From: a virus
IMG/VR virus record: IMGVR_UViG_3300045988_093513
Location: 1 to 64,000 of that record
Reading direction: 5' to 3' (one strand)
Length of the DNA: 64,000 nucleotides
The notes under the pieces are model-generated. The model saw only the letters and a program-made list of their open reading frames with translations, had not been told where the DNA came from and ran no database searches. The translations under genes and the position numbers were made by a program. Of this stretch, positions 58,095-63,999 are shown in pieces; within the stretch, counting starts at the first letter, position 1, and the number at the start of each line of letters is the position of its first letter.

Positions 58095-59057
58095 TTACGG
58101 CGCAACGGTTGGAGTAATAGTCTCCACGACAACTGGTTTCGGGTTAACCTTACCAGTCAGGTTCTTAATACGAGCGTTAGCATTCGGTGCGGTACATTCG
58201 ATAGATGCTACGCCAGTGATTACCTTTTCCTTATAAGTACCGACTCTCGGCGGTTCTTCAGTATGGAACGGAATAAGGTAGCCAAGTTTCCAATACTGCG
58301 GGTCGAGCAGGTCAACCACATCGTCAGAGTACATACGATGGGCTTCCAGACGAAGAGAACCAAAGTCAGTCTCGATGATTTCGAGAGAGGTGGTGATACT
58401 CTTGTCACCTGCCTGGCGAATCGGCAGTGCACCCTGAGTAAAGTCGGCGCATCCACGCTTATTACGTGCGGACATAATAGCGACGGACGGGTCGCCACCA
58501 CGCTGCCAGGTCAGCTGCATTGCGTCATTCAGAAGGTCGAAAGTAAGGTTGCCCTTAGCAACGTCCTTCGCTGCGTCAATGCAGTTCTGGAATGTGATGG
58601 AGCCCATCTTAGTTTCTTTAACTTTACCTTCACCGCTGGAAACACCATGACCATTTGCGTCATACTTGACGGAGTTCATAGCGCCTTCCGGAGTGTCATA
58701 CAGATAGAACGTATTAGCGTCCTTAACTGCTACGTAGTAGGCAACGTTTTCTTTACATACAGCACCACCACGAACGATGAGGGCATCGCCGTTTACAAAG
58801 CCGTGGTCGTTCAGAGTGAACTCACCAAAAGCTACGGTTACACCTTTCAGTTCATCTTCAAGGAAGTACGGAATACCACCAAAAGTACCAGCAACGTTTT
58901 CAGACATCGGGGTTGCAGTGGTGTTGTTTACGATAGCATATTCAAGGTCACCTGCGATTTCCTTGCCAGCCTTAACGAACTGGTACGCTACTTCGTCACG
59001 AACACCGTACTTTTTGATAGCCTGAGTGATATCAGAGATGTTATCGTTTGTGTTAAC
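58095..59057 (-). CDS. Major capsid protein, 3' exon (HK97-fold-like)
   Basis: The frame is open from 59057 (after an in-frame TGA at 59058-60) to the stop. The sequence is capsid-like and the position is portal-scaffold-capsid. The listed ORF from the first ATG (58907) is a truncation artefact. Confidence 0.5.
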   Translation of the reverse strand, partial: VNTNDNISDITQAIKKYGVRDEVAYQFVKAGKEIAGDLEYAIVNNTTATPMSENVAGTFGGIPYFLEDELKGVTVAFGEFTLNDHGFVNGDALIVRGGAVCKENVAYYVAVKDANTFYLYDTPEGAMNSVKYDANGHGVSSGEGKVKETKMGSITFQNCIDAAKDVAKGNLTFDLLNDAMQLTWQRGGDPSVAIMSARNKRGCADFTQGALPIRQAGDKSITTSLEIIETDFGSLRLEAHRMYSDDVVDLLDPQYWKLGYLIPFHTEEPPRVGTYKEKVITGVASIECTAPNANARIKNLTGKVNPKPVVVETITPTVAP

Positions 59058-59810
59058 TCATACTTTCATATGAGACCAGACTATATTATACTTAATCGGT
59101 GTTATCGTATAGTCGTTGGGATTTCATACGCTTTTCACAGTAATTATTTAACCTTTTCTGTTTACGTAAAATATTGAACTTTAGTCCAGATTCTATAAAT
59201 GACTTTAGGTTCATAGTGAAACTCAGTTGTACTTTGTTTTTGGTTCGTATTTCTCTTGTCTTACCACACGATACACCAAAGGATTGTAGCATCCTTTTTA
59301 TATCGTATGTCCAAGAGTATGTAGTTCCGTACCCCATCATCCAATTTGTATTACCATTTGGATTGGCACGCTGTGAGACCCAACCATCAGAATCAAGTAC
59401 ACCTTCTAAAAATTCTTTCTTTAACTCTTTGTCCCATTGATACACATAGTCTGGGATGTATCTACATCCAGCTGTGTCATCAACGAATATCTTAAATTCT
59501 TTAGAACATACTTGAAGATAGTATTTGTTAGTCCCTACCCTTTGGTGGACTTTCACATCTCTATTGATAAAACGTGATAAGTAATCAGCAACTTTACCAA
59601 TAAACTCTTTATCAATACATTCAAATGAGTATGCGTACGTGTTCCCTCTTTTGAAAACACTAGCATCTCCAAAGTAACAACCAAGTAAATAAGCGTATGT
59701 CTTATCTGCGGGTTTCCTATTCATAATACATATCCTTTCTATTTTTACACTTTGGTAAGAAGGGCTTTAAGGGTTTCCTGCATATGGATAACTTTTATAT
59801 GGGCAAACAT
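59058..59810 (-). mobile_element. Intervening element in the capsid gene. Probably a group I intron carrying a LAGLIDADG homing endonuclease.
   Basis: A 750-nt insertion between two in-phase capsid ORF halves. It contains a free-standing LAGLIDADG ORF in a different frame with its own RBS. Confidence 0.45.
59092..59724 (-). CDS. LAGLIDADG homing endonuclease
   Basis: Two LAGLIDADG motifs: AYLLGCYFGDASV and EFLEGVLDSDGWVS. RBS AAAGGATATG. Confidence 0.7.
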   Translation of the reverse strand: MNRKPADKTYAYLLGCYFGDASVFKRGNTYAYSFECIDKEFIGKVADYLSRFINRDVKVHQRVGTNKYYLQVCSKEFKIFVDDTAGCRYIPDYVYQWDKELKKEFLEGVLDSDGWVSQRANPNGNTNWMMGYGTTYSWTYDIKRMLQSFGVSCGKTREIRTKNKVQLSFTMNLKSFIESGLKFNILRKQKRLNNYCEKRMKSQRLYDNTD

Positions 59811-60119
59811 TTACCCATGCATGAACTGCTGAACAGTGTTGTACATCCAACGTCTCGGCACGGTTTCCGTGGTATCGAAGTTGATAACTTCAGGATGCTT
59901 GTTCACCATTGCCGGACGGAGAGAATCTCTCAGCCATTCATGTTTAGTGGATACTACGGTAGTTTTACCGAACATCTGTGTAAGTTTAGTTTTATCTGGG
60001 TCGAGGTTGGTAATGAAGTCAGACATATCTCTAACAGTACCAACGACGTTATAAGAGCGAAGGGCAGAACCTTTATTATGCGGGGCTGCTGCACCTGTAG
60101 CTGGCATACCTACTGCCAT
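59811..60119 (-). CDS. Major capsid protein, 5' exon (N-terminal about 100 aa)
   Basis: Same frame phase as the 3' exon. Terminated by a TAA that I infer lies inside the intron. Confidence 0.45.
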   Translation of the reverse strand: MAVGMPATGAAAPHNKGSALRSYNVVGTVRDMSDFITNLDPDKTKLTQMFGKTTVVSTKHEWLRDSLRPAMVNKHPEVINFDTTETVPRRWMYNTVQQFMHG

Positions 60120-60142
60120 TGAGCTGTTACCTCTCTTTCAAT

Positions 60143-60829
60143 TTATACGCCAAGCTCTTTCGCAAACCTAGATACGTATGCCGCCTGTTGGTCGTTAGTC
60201 ATCTGACCAAGCGCAGCGTAGTCCATAGTTTTCTGTGCCTGTGGCATTGCACCACGGTTATTTGTCGGTTCGACATACGGTGGACGTACCTGCGGCTGGA
60301 CAGGCCGAGGCATAGGCTGCGGAGCCTGCTGTGGCTGGTTGCCACGATGATAATACATATTCGATACGGCCTGCATGTAATTGTCAAGCACTTCCGCGTT
60401 ACCAGTCTTGAGAGCGTCCTGTACTTCCACATACATTTTGTACGGGAGGTTCTGGAGACTACTCAGAGCGAGCTGGTTAATCGTGTCGAAGTTCGGGTCT
60501 TGTCTGTATTTATTAGCAACAGATGCAATTCTTTGAGAAGCAGCTGCCTTTTCGGCTTCCTGCTGTTTCATTTCGTTAACCCTCTGTAGGGTGGCTGCTT
60601 TGACATTACCAACTTCATTGACATATGCTGCCATATGTTTACTGTTGTACTCGTCAAAATCTTCACCAAAGAGCTGTTTAACTCGGTCTTTGCAATACGT
60701 ATCAACCTGGTCGAGGTACGCTCTCTGGTCAGCCATAGCACGCTGCTGTACTTCTTCTGGGGACATCTGCGGCTGCTGGGGCTGAACATTCTGGGGCTGA
60801 GGGTTGTTCGCAAACTGCTGCATCATCAT
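60143..60829 (-). CDS. Gln-rich alpha-helical scaffolding-like protein. Possibly exon 2 of a split scaffold gene.
   Basis: Q/P-rich ends. The frame stays open about 66 nt upstream of the MMM start and encodes a matching QQRQ-rich sequence. Confidence 0.4.
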   Translation of the reverse strand: MMMQQFANNPQPQNVQPQQPQMSPEEVQQRAMADQRAYLDQVDTYCKDRVKQLFGEDFDEYNSKHMAAYVNEVGNVKAATLQRVNEMKQQEAEKAAASQRIASVANKYRQDPNFDTINQLALSSLQNLPYKMYVEVQDALKTGNAEVLDNYMQAVSNMYYHRGNQPQQAPQPMPRPVQPQVRPPYVEPTNNRGAMPQAQKTMDYAALGQMTNDQQAAYVSRFAKELGV

Positions 60830-61161
60830 CTGTCGCTGCTGTTCGAGAGCCTGACGCTGAGCTGCGAGTTCCTGTGTTTTCCTAGTGTCTTAACCTTCGA
60901 GTAAAGTCGTTAATTTTACCCCGTCATTCCACAGGAGAATGACTGCTGCATATTTCTATGCAGAAGAGACTATTTCTTCACCTTCTCCTTTCAGAGGTCA
61001 GGTGTCTGGCACTTCCGTCCACTTGGACGTACTCCCTGCAACGGGATAGTCGTTACGGGTTCCCAGCATAGCTGGGCTTCCCACGAGATTGCCCTCGTCT
61101 TTACGTTAGGGTGTTCCTCGTTTTCACCAGATTTAAATCAAGGATTTCTCCAAGAAGTGAC

Positions 61162-61569
61162 CTATTTTGTTAAGTCAGCCTGTCGCATATAACCATTACG
61201 CATTTCATCCATAGAAACCTGTACGTCCTGTCCATCTACACGGACAGTCTGCATTTCCGGCTGCGGCTGTGGTACTTCCTGCGGCTGTTCTTGGACGGGT
61301 TCTGGTTCATCATCATAGTCGCCTGTCGGTTCTCCGAAAAAGGCGTCGGCAAAAGTGACGTCCCCGTTCTCGTCAATACCAAATGCAGGTTCATCAGCGT
61401 CATTGTTCTGCGGTGCAGTCTGCGCATCCGGTGTTTCCACTGGCGCAGTTGTTGCAGGAACAGGTTCCTGAGCTGGTTCTACCATTGGCATTCCGTTCTG
61501 CATTTCTTCCATAAATTCCTCCTTTTTGCACTCCGTAAAGGTTGGTGCAGTAAAATATATATACGCCAA
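61162..61569 (-). CDS. Acidic scaffolding-like protein (TTG start). Possibly exon 1 of a split scaffold gene.
   Basis: A 135-aa highly acidic, Pro/Gln/Glu-rich protein. It sits between the portal-side genes and the capsid gene. Confidence 0.4.
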   Translation of the reverse strand: MAYIYFTAPTFTECKKEEFMEEMQNGMPMVEPAQEPVPATTAPVETPDAQTAPQNNDADEPAFGIDENGDVTFADAFFGEPTGDYDDEPEPVQEQPQEVPQPQPEMQTVRVDGQDVQVSMDEMRNGYMRQADLTK

Positions 61570-61726
61570 TAACCATGCAAAATTTGTTCGTTAAATAACG
61601 AGGTTTTACACGGTTTTGACGAAATTAACTGGCACGGATTGCTAGAATCGAACTAGCGAATTGCTGGGTCAAAGCCAGCCGCCTTCACCACTTGGCTAAA
61701 CCCGTATCACTATTTGTATAAGAAAA

Positions 61727-62563
61727 CTACCTATTATTCTGGTTGTATGCACGCAATGCATTAAATCCACGGATAAGTGGGTCGTGTTCATCGTGATATG
61801 CAGACGGGTTTGCATCCCTGTATGTCTGAGCATCAAGCTGATAATAGTCAGCAGGGCTAGGCTGTGCATAAGCGTTATCCATAGCGTAGTAGTCTGCTAC
61901 GGAATTACCTGGCATATCGAAGCCTTCAGAAGAACCAGTGGAACCAGAGTCATCTGGTACACCAAGCGCCATAGCATCCTGAGCAGCTGCCGGTCCATAG
62001 TTCTGCCGCATAGCAGCTTCATACTCCATCTGCTTACGAAGTTTTTCTCTTTCATACGCTTCATACTGAGCCTGTGTATGGTCGATACCACCATTGTTTA
62101 CAAGGTATTCATGCATACCCCAGTTCATCGGTGTCTTATCACGGTTAGCAATTTGTTCGTCTGTCCATCCTGCGTCTTTCATAAGCTGAATACCTCTATC
62201 GTTGATAGTATCGCCAGTATTAGCATATGTCAGCGGTGCATTAGGTGTACCAGAAGGTAAATTACGTGTAGCAAATTCATAAGAACCGGCCTTAGGTGTC
62301 GGCTTCAGCTGACTACCGTTATCGATAGCTGCCTGCCCACGGTTAGCGGACCGTACCCAAGCGTTACTATCATCACGGGTCGGTGCCATAAACCTATTAC
62401 GAATACGTTCACGCTCTTTGTCATATTCAGACATGGGAGCGTTTTCCTGTGCAGTTGGCGTACTGCCATGAATCTGATTGTAAACATCTGTGAGAGCTTT
62501 AGCTGCTTCATATCTTTGAACATCCGCCTGTCGAGGGATACTCCTCGTATACTTAATTGCCAT
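61727..62563 (-). CDS. Hypothetical head-assembly protein (278 aa)
   Basis: ORF with an AGGAGG RBS. Confidence 0.45.
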   Translation of the reverse strand: MAIKYTRSIPRQADVQRYEAAKALTDVYNQIHGSTPTAQENAPMSEYDKERERIRNRFMAPTRDDSNAWVRSANRGQAAIDNGSQLKPTPKAGSYEFATRNLPSGTPNAPLTYANTGDTINDRGIQLMKDAGWTDEQIANRDKTPMNWGMHEYLVNNGGIDHTQAQYEAYEREKLRKQMEYEAAMRQNYGPAAAQDAMALGVPDDSGSTGSSEGFDMPGNSVADYYAMDNAYAQPSPADYYQLDAQTYRDANPSAYHDEHDPLIRGFNALRAYNQNNR

Positions 62564-63999
62564 TAATAACCTCCTACTCCATTAGTCGGTTCAGCAGGTG
62601 CGCCATTAGGAACCCTATTATCGGCTGGCTGCTGACCAATTTGTTTGTCTGGAGAGAGGGCGTCACTACCTTGTCGCACAGTAGAAGTGACCGCTCCTCC
62701 TGCTCCTTGTGGTGCAGATACATTCTGCATAGGAACCGTACTCTGACCAGTGTTGTTTGTATTTGTTGGTAACGTATGATTCAAGAATACTACCTGCACA
62801 TAGGGGGGGAGTGAGTAGAGAACCTGAATCGGTAACGAGCCATACTGGAAGTAGTAAGCCACAACATCAGGGGGGAGAGTCTGAAGTGTTGCCTGAATGA
62901 TTTGTGCTTCAAGCATAGTACGCTGTTGCGCAACAACAGGGTCAGTAATATAGTCACCTGTATTTTTAATACCCATATTTTCCATCCAACGTTTCGTGAT
63001 GTTATAAATGTTATGTGGAGTTGCAACCGCAACACCAGTAGCGTTTACTTGCATGATAGCAGTCATGAGCGTCTGAAGCTGGGTATTCATAGCTTCTTTA
63101 CTCTGGATGGAGAGACCAGCGTTTACAACCAGATCGAAAGAGCCAGACAAGTCATCTGGTTTGATTTCCATTGGTTCCCCTGTTAATCGAATAACAGTGT
63201 TTTGGTCAATAAACTTTTGGTTCAAAGATATAAGAAAACGATATAGTTCATATACACCCGTTTCAGCAAACATACGAGCAATAAGTTCCAGTCGCTGATT
63301 AGATGCATTCATGATGGTATTGATACCGCTTGCTGTGTTATGTGTTACGGTATAGTGTTTGCCTACGCAGAACTGACCATCTTCGGCATCAACAGTTAAA
63401 CACCGCATTGGAATAATATCGGTCGGTTCGATTAATACTATTTTAACCCTATCAACACTACGTTTAGACTGTACATACTTGTTTGCTTTTCGGCTTAATC
63501 TAAATGGATTATCGAGGCAACTAATAGTTAAATGCCAATATGTACGACCTTCTTTAGCTAACTTGCCAGGGAATTGCTCTGACTTAGAATAATTCCAGCC
63601 AAAGGAACAAATCAAGCGTTCTACATCGTCCAATAACTGCCCGTTTGCTTGAGAGAAAATAGCCAACGAACCAGAATGGTGACAACCATCAGTGTCCATA
63701 AGTCCACGAAGAAGTTCCATACGCTGTCTATAAGAAGCACTAAAGAAAATCTCCGGTATGTGTTTACAGTTATCTTTCATGTCGTCGTATCTTGCATCGC
63801 GGGCAATGTGTAGTTTTCTAAGGATGGTGTGCAAGTCTGTGCCAACTATGTCATACGTAATAGCCTTTCCTGCGTTTTGGTGTGAAGACGGTCTGATAAA
63901 ACCACCTCTGAACTTTGCCCATTCGGACATGGCGTCCACTATTTCTTTATCCATTGAGGTAAAGCGATTGGTGTGTAAGCAGCCGTCGCCCAAGAACAC
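62563..63999 (-). CDS. Intein-containing packaging/structural protein (portal or large-terminase-like). The 5' part is outside the window.
   Basis: The ORF runs to the window edge. The N-terminal 221 aa seen are the C-terminal part of an intein. The remainder is the C-extein. Confidence 0.55.
   Translation of the reverse strand: MFLGDGCLHTNRFTSMDKEIVDAMSEWAKFRGGFIRPSSHQNAGKAITYDIVGTDLHTILRKLHIARDARYDDMKDNCKHIPEIFFSASYRQRMELLRGLMDTDGCHHSGSLAIFSQANGQLLDDVERLICSFGWNYSKSEQFPGKLAKEGRTYWHLTISCLDNPFRLSRKANKYVQSKRSVDRVKIVLIEPTDIIPMRCLTVDAEDGQFCVGKHYTVTHNTASGINTIMNASNQRLELIARMFAETGVYELYRFLISLNQKFIDQNTVIRLTGEPMEIKPDDLSGSFDLVVNAGLSIQSKEAMNTQLQTLMTAIMQVNATGVAVATPHNIYNITKRWMENMGIKNTGDYITDPVVAQQRTMLEAQIIQATLQTLPPDVVAYYFQYGSLPIQVLYSLPPYVQVVFLNHTLPTNTNNTGQSTVPMQNVSAPQGAGGAVTSTVRQGSDALSPDKQIGQQPADNRVPNGAPAEPTNGVGGY
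63337..63999 (-). mobile_element. Intein (partial) with a LAGLIDADG homing-endonuclease domain
   Basis: Blocks FLGDGCLH and LRGLMDTDGCH (LAGLIDADG x2). C-terminal splicing block LTVDAEDGQFCVGKHYTVTHN followed by the +1 Thr. Confidence 0.65.

Follow-up and report, generated by a model that had tools for sequence, protein, structure and literature searches.

The 64,000-nucleotide (nt) stretch of viral DNA analysed here (positions 1 to 64,000 of IMG/VR record IMGVR_UViG_3300045988_093513, hereafter the window) carries a single head-scaffolding gene that is very probably interrupted, at 61172..60889, by a group I self-splicing intron without an endonuclease gene. The minus strand is the working strand throughout, and all coordinates are positions in the window. 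An earlier sequence-only reading had drawn attention to a hairpin-rich segment at 60830..61161, between an 'acidic' and a 'Gln-rich' open reading frame (ORF), and had proposed one scaffold gene split by a small self-splicing intron lacking a homing endonuclease gene (HEG). This proposal is borne out by a match to the Rfam family Intron_gpI, an in-frame junction, contiguous homologues and covariation. The segment itself is also real; its limits had to be redrawn, the element occupying 60889..61172 (284 nt). The gene is laid out as follows:

61173..61512, minus strand: exon 1 of the head-scaffolding gene, 340 nt, ending ...GCT GAC T, the final T being the first base of a Tyr codon
60889..61172, minus strand: predicted group I intron, 284 nt, IA-type, no ORF (from the Rfam match, the intron-less L001 allele, the in-frame join and covariation)
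61162..61164, minus strand: in-frame TAG, three codons into the intron, which ends translation of the unspliced RNA
60143..60888, minus strand: exon 2 of the head-scaffolding gene, 746 nt including the stop codon, beginning AC ACT AGG AAA ACA

In this layout, a single scaffolding gene accounts for both the 'acidic' and the 'Gln-rich' ORF. The ATG of exon 1 at 61512 has an AAGGAGG ribosome-binding site upstream, and the 'acidic' ORF that starts there ends ...DEMRNGYMRQADLTK at the stop TAG 61164..61162, an apparent end that arises because this in-frame TAG lies three codons inside the intron. All intron copies with an intact 5' end have an in-frame stop no more than five codons from the splice site. 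The 228-amino-acid (aa) 'Gln-rich' ORF (ATG 60829 to 60143) is an ATG-truncated reading of exon 2. The frame upstream of its ATG is open, as had been claimed, over 60 nt (60889..60830) and not about 66, and it translates as D-TRKTQELAAQRQALEQQRQ. The minus strand has no ORF of at least 30 aa from the TAG at 61164..61162 to the ATG at 60829, in agreement with the sequence-only reading; two short plus-strand ORFs of 36–37 aa overlap the gap.

Removal of 61172..60889 joins ...GCT GAC T to AC ACT AGG AAA in frame and yields a protein of 361 aa, and the joined exons are free of frameshifts and stops. The expected ligated-exon sequence is GGCUGACU followed directly by ACACUAGGAAAAC (junction sequence MRQADYTRKTQELAAQR), and the protein reads MRQAD-Y-TRKTQELAAQR across the junction. 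A protein search with the spliced product found 248 homologues, the best of which (P0001, representing 560 member sequences) is likewise 361 aa long and is 94% identical at 100% coverage. The top eight full-length homologues (P0001–P0008, 346–375 aa) are all continuous across the junction, and the RQADYTRKTQ motif is nearly invariant even in homologues of 30–40% identity. The spliced product is a head scaffolding protein by comparison with PHROGs (phrog_3927, E 1.2e-14).

The contig that encodes P0001 (L001) supplies the intron-less allele. Window 61750..61175 aligns to L001 5763..6338 with 88% identity, and window 60886..60100 aligns to L001 6343..7129 with 96.7% identity. Where the window has 284 additional bases, L001 reads without interruption (GCTGATTATACTAGGAAG / GCTGATTATACTAGGAAGACA, encoding ADYTRKT). 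With both boundaries placed to single-nucleotide precision by this comparison, the end of the 'acidic' ORF (L-T-K-TAG, three codons and the stop) is assigned to the intron, and the 59 nt upstream of the 'first ATG' of the 'Gln-rich' ORF to exon 2. The alignment with related scaffold genes that the sequence-only reading had proposed as a check thus gives a contiguous ORF, the close relatives carrying a single uninterrupted gene of 1083 nt. The same reading had named beforehand what would speak against an intron, namely two separate genes with a conserved spacer in related phages, and the opposite was found.

A scan of the whole window with Rfam at gathering thresholds gave two matches only, to Intron_gpI and to a tRNA. 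The Intron_gpI (RF00028) match lies on the minus strand at 61181..60946, reaches 84.5 bits (E 4.6e-20), the gathering score being 50 bits, and spans model positions 1–253 of 253. The Rfam model stops at P9; the intron runs on through two further hairpins to a terminal G. The covariance-model check recommended earlier was therefore decided for group I, with no group II family matching anywhere in the scan. A group II intron was rejected on these grounds and also because the element has no ORF and no reverse-transcriptase ORF was present. The structured regulatory RNA that had been offered as the alternative to an intron found no support either, and the scan returned nothing for a riboswitch or a small RNA. 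The tRNA match is a tRNA-Gln (anticodon UUG) at 61630-61705 on the minus strand, between an upstream 278-aa ORF and the scaffolding gene, with 64.8 bits in Rfam and also found by ARAGORN.

The helix model was obtained from the Rfam alignment with manual extension, and comprises the following elements:

61177-61173 with 61162-61158, minus strand: P1, exon UGACU with guide GGUCA (intron nt 11-15), U.G at the splice site; read from the sequence
61139-61154, minus strand: P2, GAAA loop
61125-61131 with 61005-61011, minus strand: P3, all cells (100%) paired
61083-61121, minus strand: P4-P5, invariant
61057-61082, minus strand: P6/P6a, P6 invariant
61062..61076, minus strand: P6a hairpin CCCAGCUAUGCUGGG, 15 nt, the position of the endonuclease cassette in L002, L113 and L105
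61046-61051 with 60968-60973, minus strand: P7, GACUAU with AUAGUC, pseudoknot with P3, invariant
61034-61045, minus strand: P7.1, 3 bp, invariant
61016-61029, minus strand: P7.2, 5 bp, three compensatory pairs
60979-61004, minus strand: P8, GAAA loop, invariant and fully paired
within 60968..61004, minus strand: J8/7, between P8 and the P7 3' strand
60946-60963, minus strand: P9, GAAA tetraloop
60923-60943, minus strand: P9.1
60900-60920, minus strand: P9.2

The intron begins with UAACAAAAUAGGUCA and ends with ...GGUUAAG. Its terminal guanosine (omega G) is at 60889, and all ten aligned copies end in G directly before exon 2. At the 5' splice site, the U.G wobble is present in each of the nine copies that cover the position, and the U.G, C-G and G-C pairs of P1 are invariant in the same number of copies (9/9). 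The minimum-free-energy fold has a z of -3.95; none of 200 shuffles folds as well, and most of the modelled hairpins are recovered.

Two of the hairpins had been recognized in the sequence-only reading. The hairpin CTGCATA-GAAA-TATGCAG was placed exactly, at 60946-60963, and is helix P9, in which the GNRA loop is kept (GAAA becomes GAGA in L105, L108 and L110). The second, GTCATTC...GAATGAC, was located at 60923-60943 and is P9.1, with compensatory changes in relatives at four of its seven pairs. A third proposal, pairing of CCCGT repeats with a distal ACGGG, did not stand: the version with nt 128-132 is broken without compensation in eight cells, and the version with nt 114-118 is invariant across all copies and hence uninformative. 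CCCGU (intron nt 114-118; window 61055-61059) and ACGGG (nt 249-253; 60920-60924) are unchanged in all ten copies. In addition, UCCUG in the L9.1 loop and CAGGG in the 3' half of P7.1 are complementary (window 61033-61037 / 60930-60936), and the two motifs are jointly absent from the lineage found in the capsid gene. CCCGU/ACGGG and UCCUG/CAGGG may represent tertiary contacts.

Further intron copies were recovered by pattern and protein-guided searches and fall into three lineages:

Lineage A, in this scaffold gene: the window, L007/L103 and L111 without HEG, L002 and L113 with HEG; the L007/L103 and L111 introns are 99.5–99.6% identical to that of the window, and L002 is about 98% identical over aligned intron segments
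Lineage B, in the capsid gene: L004/L083, L106, L107 and L115; 80–82% identical to the window intron
Lineage C, in a more diverged scaffold gene at the same codon (GCG GAC T/AC ACA AGA AAG): L105 with HEG, L108, L109 and L110 without; 76–77% identical

The 83-pair model was mapped onto a 10-sequence MAFFT alignment of the three lineages from which the endonuclease loops had been trimmed, and compared with slid controls in which the partner was shifted by 1–3 columns. Standard pairs are formed in 95.2% of cells versus 38–45% in the slid controls, a percentage that is inflated relative to these controls by the derivation of the model from the window sequence, as the count of compensatory changes is not. 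That count is 22 pairs changed on both sides, compared with 1–3 in the slid controls, and the covariation score is 0.273 versus 0.03–0.08, a value reached by none of 500 shuffles. The double changes are distributed, as would be expected, over P2 (1), P3 (2), P6a (4), P7.2 (3), P8a (1), P9 (3), P9.1 (4) and P9.2 (4), and the catalytic core helices P4, P5, P6, P7 and P8 are invariant across the aligned copies.

The element thus possesses the group I core, P3–P8 with the P3/P7 pseudoknot, with comparative support. Its layout is that of subgroup IA: P7.1 and P7.2 lie between the P7 5' strand and P3', P9.1 and P9.2 are peripheral, and P5 is a simple hairpin without P5abc. The specifics of this layout agree with what is generally known of IA2 introns, and the subgroup as modelled is IA, IA2-like, an assignment that rests on hand-drawn helices and not on a reference classification. 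The class criteria for IA, its extra and peripheral helices, have been summarised (PMC3984707). The element is of an ordinary sort; the scaffolding gene is a new address for it, and it is not a new kind of element.

In the viral-contig scan, 284 extra nt within the match span were found at only one of 58 scaffold-gene loci (L007), and one of the five closest loci (L003–L007, 92–95% protein identity) is intron-bearing. The site is uninterrupted also in L003, L005, L006, L008, L009, L106, L107 and L115, as well as in L236 (CAVKBL010000010.1, 70,111 bp), which has an uninterrupted 1083-nt scaffolding gene of 76% identity. Two types of empty allele occur. The first, GAC TAC ACT AGG AAA (GACTACACTAGGAAA; L106, L107), equals the exons of the intron-bearing alleles. 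The second, GAT TAT ACT AGG AAG (GATTATACTAGGAAG in L001; also L003, L005, L006 and L115), has three synonymous changes no more than 13 nt from the insertion point (sites 61180-61173 and 60888-60875). These clustered changes could be co-conversion tracts or could mark cleavage-resistant alleles; either fits.

Relatives of the window intron indicate where an endonuclease gene would have been. The P6a loop of the window copy (61075..61071) gives way in L002 and L113 to an insert of about 546 nt; over L002, L113 and L105, the cassettes measure 550–570 nt. The L002/L113 insert forms an extended P6a stem, AUAGCAUA/UAUGCUAU plus GUAUUC/GAAUAC, in the loop of which lie a ribosome-binding site, GGAGG, and an ORF of 167 aa that has NUMOD4 and HNH_3 domains (E-values for HNH_3 and NUMOD4 in the relatives, 4.9e-13 and 6.7e-9). 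In lineage C, L105 carries a homologous HNH/NUMOD4 cassette. The L002 and L105 cassettes are 64–67% identical in nucleotides and 68% in amino acids, and the intron backbones about 76%. As the divergence of the cassette is no less than that of the backbone, the HEG apparently diverged together with the intron, was ancestral and was later lost. We also considered a recent transfer of the cassette between intron backbones, which is unlikely given that the identity of the cassettes is no higher than that of the backbones.

The window copy most likely descends from a mobile form with an HNH endonuclease in the P6a loop, since lost, and the endonuclease gene appears to have been lost several times, this copy included. 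L109 and L110 look like deletions of the HNH cassette between two AATATT repeats: compared with L105, they would retain ATAGTGGCAATATT and GTCCACTAT and lack the intervening segment that contains the HEG and ends in GCGAATATT. L108 retains a different, longer cassette remnant. Together, these configurations suggest independent losses. The window intron has no homing endonuclease of its own, and its strand has no ORF of at least 30 aa in 60889-61172. Having no HEG, it cannot promote its own homing, and could spread only by recombination or with the help of an endonuclease acting in trans. The scaffold site thus displays the series expected of a homing cycle: empty, occupied by an intron with an endonuclease gene, and occupied by an intron without one.

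In the mechanism that we propose, the usual one for group I introns, the scaffold gene would be transcribed as one pre-mRNA, and ribosomes on the unspliced RNA would halt at the TAG three codons into the intron. A stop near the 5' splice site fits the introns of bacterial protein-coding genes, where ribosomes would otherwise disturb ribozyme folding (PMC3984707). The intron would fold into the P1–P9.2 architecture, and an external guanosine would attack after the U of the P1 U.G pair (exon UGACU, guide GGUCA). The freed 3'-OH of exon 1 would then attack after the terminal G (60889), and the exons would be ligated to ...GCU GAC U/AC ACU AGG..., giving the 361-aa scaffolding protein. We infer guanosine-dependent catalysis and splicing in vivo from the sequence. 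The case for activity is that head assembly cannot proceed without the gene, that the intron has an intact core and compensatory substitutions, and that near-identical copies are present in three independent assemblies of otherwise intact phage genomes. The window copy is most likely a phenotypically neutral passenger that must splice because the gene is essential.

Several points weigh against this account. P2 of the window copy has two U-U mismatches, at positions where lineage C has A-U pairs, and we found no convincing P10 that would pair ACACU of the 3' exon with the bases preceding the guide sequence. As for the descent from an endonuclease-bearing form, the window P6a hairpin CCAGCUAUGCUGG is nearly equal to that of lineage B, CCAGUUAUACUGG, unlike a simple deletion remnant of the L002 cassette, and the direction of change, gain or loss of the endonuclease, is not proven.

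The P2 mismatches and the lack of an evident P10 would also be expected of a decayed, splicing-defective remnant, which would make the scaffold gene a pseudogene in a defective phage or leave splicing wholly dependent on a protein cofactor supplied in trans. The loss of the endonuclease gene points the same way, being the stage at which intron decay is expected (PMC3984707). Such decay is nevertheless improbable, as all core helices P3–P8 and the Rfam-aligned joining segments are intact, and near-identical copies are found in three independent assemblies, in otherwise intact phage genomes of 60–70 kb. Furthermore, the exons carry neither frameshift nor stop, and the great majority of the changes that separate the lineages are compensatory, implying that the fold is still under selection.

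Two separate genes, an acidic N-terminal one and a Gln-rich one, separated by a structured RNA, intergenic or regulatory, that always stays in place, would account for the way in which ORF callers split the locus, for the presence of the 228-aa exon-2 ORF in the protein database (P0009, 31 member sequences), and for the highly structured spacer. This arrangement is very hard to reconcile with the position of the split, which cuts through the Tyr codon of a motif that hardly varies and that all intron-less homologues have in one piece. The intron supplies the three codons that precede the TAG, and homologues lack them; the 20 codons leading up to the downstream ATG specify conserved protein sequence; and the spacer, a full-length match to a catalytic intron model, is wholly absent in close relatives. 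An assembly artefact, for example a contig made chimeric with the intron of another phage, might be entertained given the metagenomic source and the abundance of related intron cores in other viral contigs, but can practically be dismissed, because identical junctions occur in independent assemblies (the IMG/VR contig L007/L103 and ENA UEOT01002615, L111) and recur with the endonuclease gene in L002 and L113, and because the insertion is nucleotide-exact and the exons join in frame.

The same intron lineage is found at a second site, in the capsid gene, about 1 kb from the scaffold site. The lineage B copy in L004 (4417-4691, 275 nt) has no endonuclease gene, uses the same GGUCA guide and differs from the window copy by compensatory changes in P3, P7.2 and P9.2. 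Lineage B sister phages have an empty scaffold site, and their scaffolding proteins are 94–95% identical. When the two sites are compared (...GGCUGACU/ACACUAGG in the scaffold gene, ...GCAUGGCU/ACAACAUC in the capsid gene), they agree at seven of eight positions from -5 to +3 (UGRCU/ACA), that is, in the five guide-pairing bases of P1 and three bases of the 3' exon, and elsewhere their similarity is at chance level. In the capsid-site copies, which have the same guide sequence, G.U takes the place of the P1 A-U pair, and a Tyr codon is split as T/AC at both sites.

Such a two-site pattern is what RNA-guided ectopic insertion through reverse splicing would predict, an origin that we regard as conceivable, though rather unlikely. 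A P1 complementarity of 4–6 nt suffices for reverse splicing, a pathway for which the evidence from nature is no more than circumstantial (PMC3984707). Relaxed specificity of the HNH endonuclease would fit the pattern as well, and so would constraint alone, in which surviving insertions must still be able to form P1.

IA2 introns are known from several phages, including those in td, nrdB and nrdD of T4, in orf142, nrdE and the terminase gene of Twort, and in the DNA polymerase gene of SPO1. The window intron has the same catalytic core and falls in the same Rfam family; it shares with them P7.1/P7.2 between P7 and P3', the P9.1/P9.2 extensions, a GNRA tetraloop on P9, an in-frame stop just inside the intron and a position in a strongly conserved part of an essential phage gene. 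Core segments align to the Twort terminase and nrdE introns and to T4-like phages with 82–90% identity over 40–60 nt. The core also resembles, in segments, introns of phiKZ-like Pseudomonas phages, and introns of Alteromonas AD45, Pseudomonas KIL, Vibrio and Klebsiella phages in which HNH genes are annotated at the match. Alignments to cultured-phage introns cover at most 74% of the length, and the best identity is 68.6%. In contrast to the known cases, the host gene is a head-scaffolding gene and the phage belongs to an uncultured SU10-like gut lineage, both of which are new.

HNH-bearing mobile group I introns are represented by the I-HmuI type of SPO1 and SP82. The L002, L113 and L105 versions, at the same site as the window intron, extend P6a and accommodate in its terminal loop an HNH_3 and NUMOD4 ORF that has a GGAGG to itself; unlike them, the window copy has only the 15-nt P6a hairpin and no ORF. 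Cluster J mycobacteriophages reportedly have introns in capsid and tail genes. As in those phages, the introns described here interrupt virion-assembly genes, splicing would be required for particles to form, and presence varies among close relatives; the host gene and the phage group are different. Intron ORFs are usually placed outside the core, and it is textbook knowledge that phages carry group I introns in conserved protein-coding genes (PMC3984707). Our literature search turned up no intron reported from a scaffolding-protein gene.

The host of the intron is an uncultured SU10-like phage of the human gut with a genome of about 65–70 kb. Pfam identifies SU10-type portal and capsid domains, nothing in the collection of cultured phages exceeds 28% identity to the capsid protein, and a megablast of the whole scaffold locus against annotated phages gave no match. 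The related contigs come from human-gut metagenomes (L111 is so labelled). L236, found in a single-protein search, belongs to the bin of a Lachnospiraceae metagenome-assembled genome, which hints only weakly at the bacterial host and is too little to name one.

Other insertions lie near the intron. The capsid gene of the window (SU10_MCP) is itself interrupted, by a 768-nt element at 59045-59812 on the minus strand, with exons at 59813-60119 and 58095-59044. The element carries a 210-aa LAGLIDADG ORF (59092-59724), leaving only 135 nt outside the ORF, and excision of 59812..59045 gives an in-frame capsid protein of 418 aa that is 95% identical to the product of the uninterrupted L002 gene. Its ends are group I-like, with AUGGGU/GCCCAU including a U.G, a terminal G, GACUAUA...UAUAGUC and a GAAA-capped hairpin. 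For this insertion, an Rfam scan over 2.4 kb found nothing at E<=1, and one restricted to 0.8 kb gave 17.7 bits (E 0.058); with scores this weak, the LAGLIDADG element is not confidently called a group I intron. The capsid codon is thus found in three states: empty (L002, CACGGATACAACATC), with the IA-type intron (L004/L083, L106, L107, L115), and with the unrelated LAGLIDADG element (the window). In the portal gene (SU10_portal; 62563-63999, minus strand), whose ORF extends past the window end, a LAGLIDADG_3 domain occupies aa 93-160 of the visible ORF and is followed by ...VTHN/TASG and then by portal sequence; the L001 portal protein is 701 aa long. This insertion looks like an intein.

Searches for further insertion sites were made with short patterns. 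In the viral-contig scan, the permissive 5'-end pattern CTTAACANNANAGGTCA (14 specified bases) gave at least 119 matches, mostly chance ones, and filtering with nhmmer left a weak match in L119 and the known L195, with no further insertion sites. The P4-P6 pattern GGGCAATCTCGTGGGAAGC found only known copies and L104, an unrelated 67-kb viral contig in which two group I intron-like elements lie a few bases apart (reverse complement, about 1150-1500); they precede an ORF, and a long ORF lies upstream of the core of the first. L073, L089, L094 and others among L061–L102 have two to three separate related IA-type cores within a few kb. These multi-copy contigs are mostly about 120–160 kb long and share the exact 17-mer GGTGAAGAAATAGTCTC. 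The intron family is abundant in the viral-contig collection.

For annotation, the consequence is that gene callers split or truncate the scaffolding gene, as illustrated by P0009, the 228-aa fragment that stands in the protein database as a protein, and the same mis-annotation is expected in many metagenomic phage genomes. For the phage, the structural-gene module would harbour selfish DNA at three places within 6 kb: the scaffold intron, the capsid LAGLIDADG insertion and the intein-like portal insertion. The part of these results that bears on an open question is the two-site distribution alone, which concerns transposition by reverse splicing; the rest adds nothing to the understanding of group I introns. 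If reverse splicing were the true explanation, these gut phages would offer a tractable natural system in which to test it in protein-coding genes.

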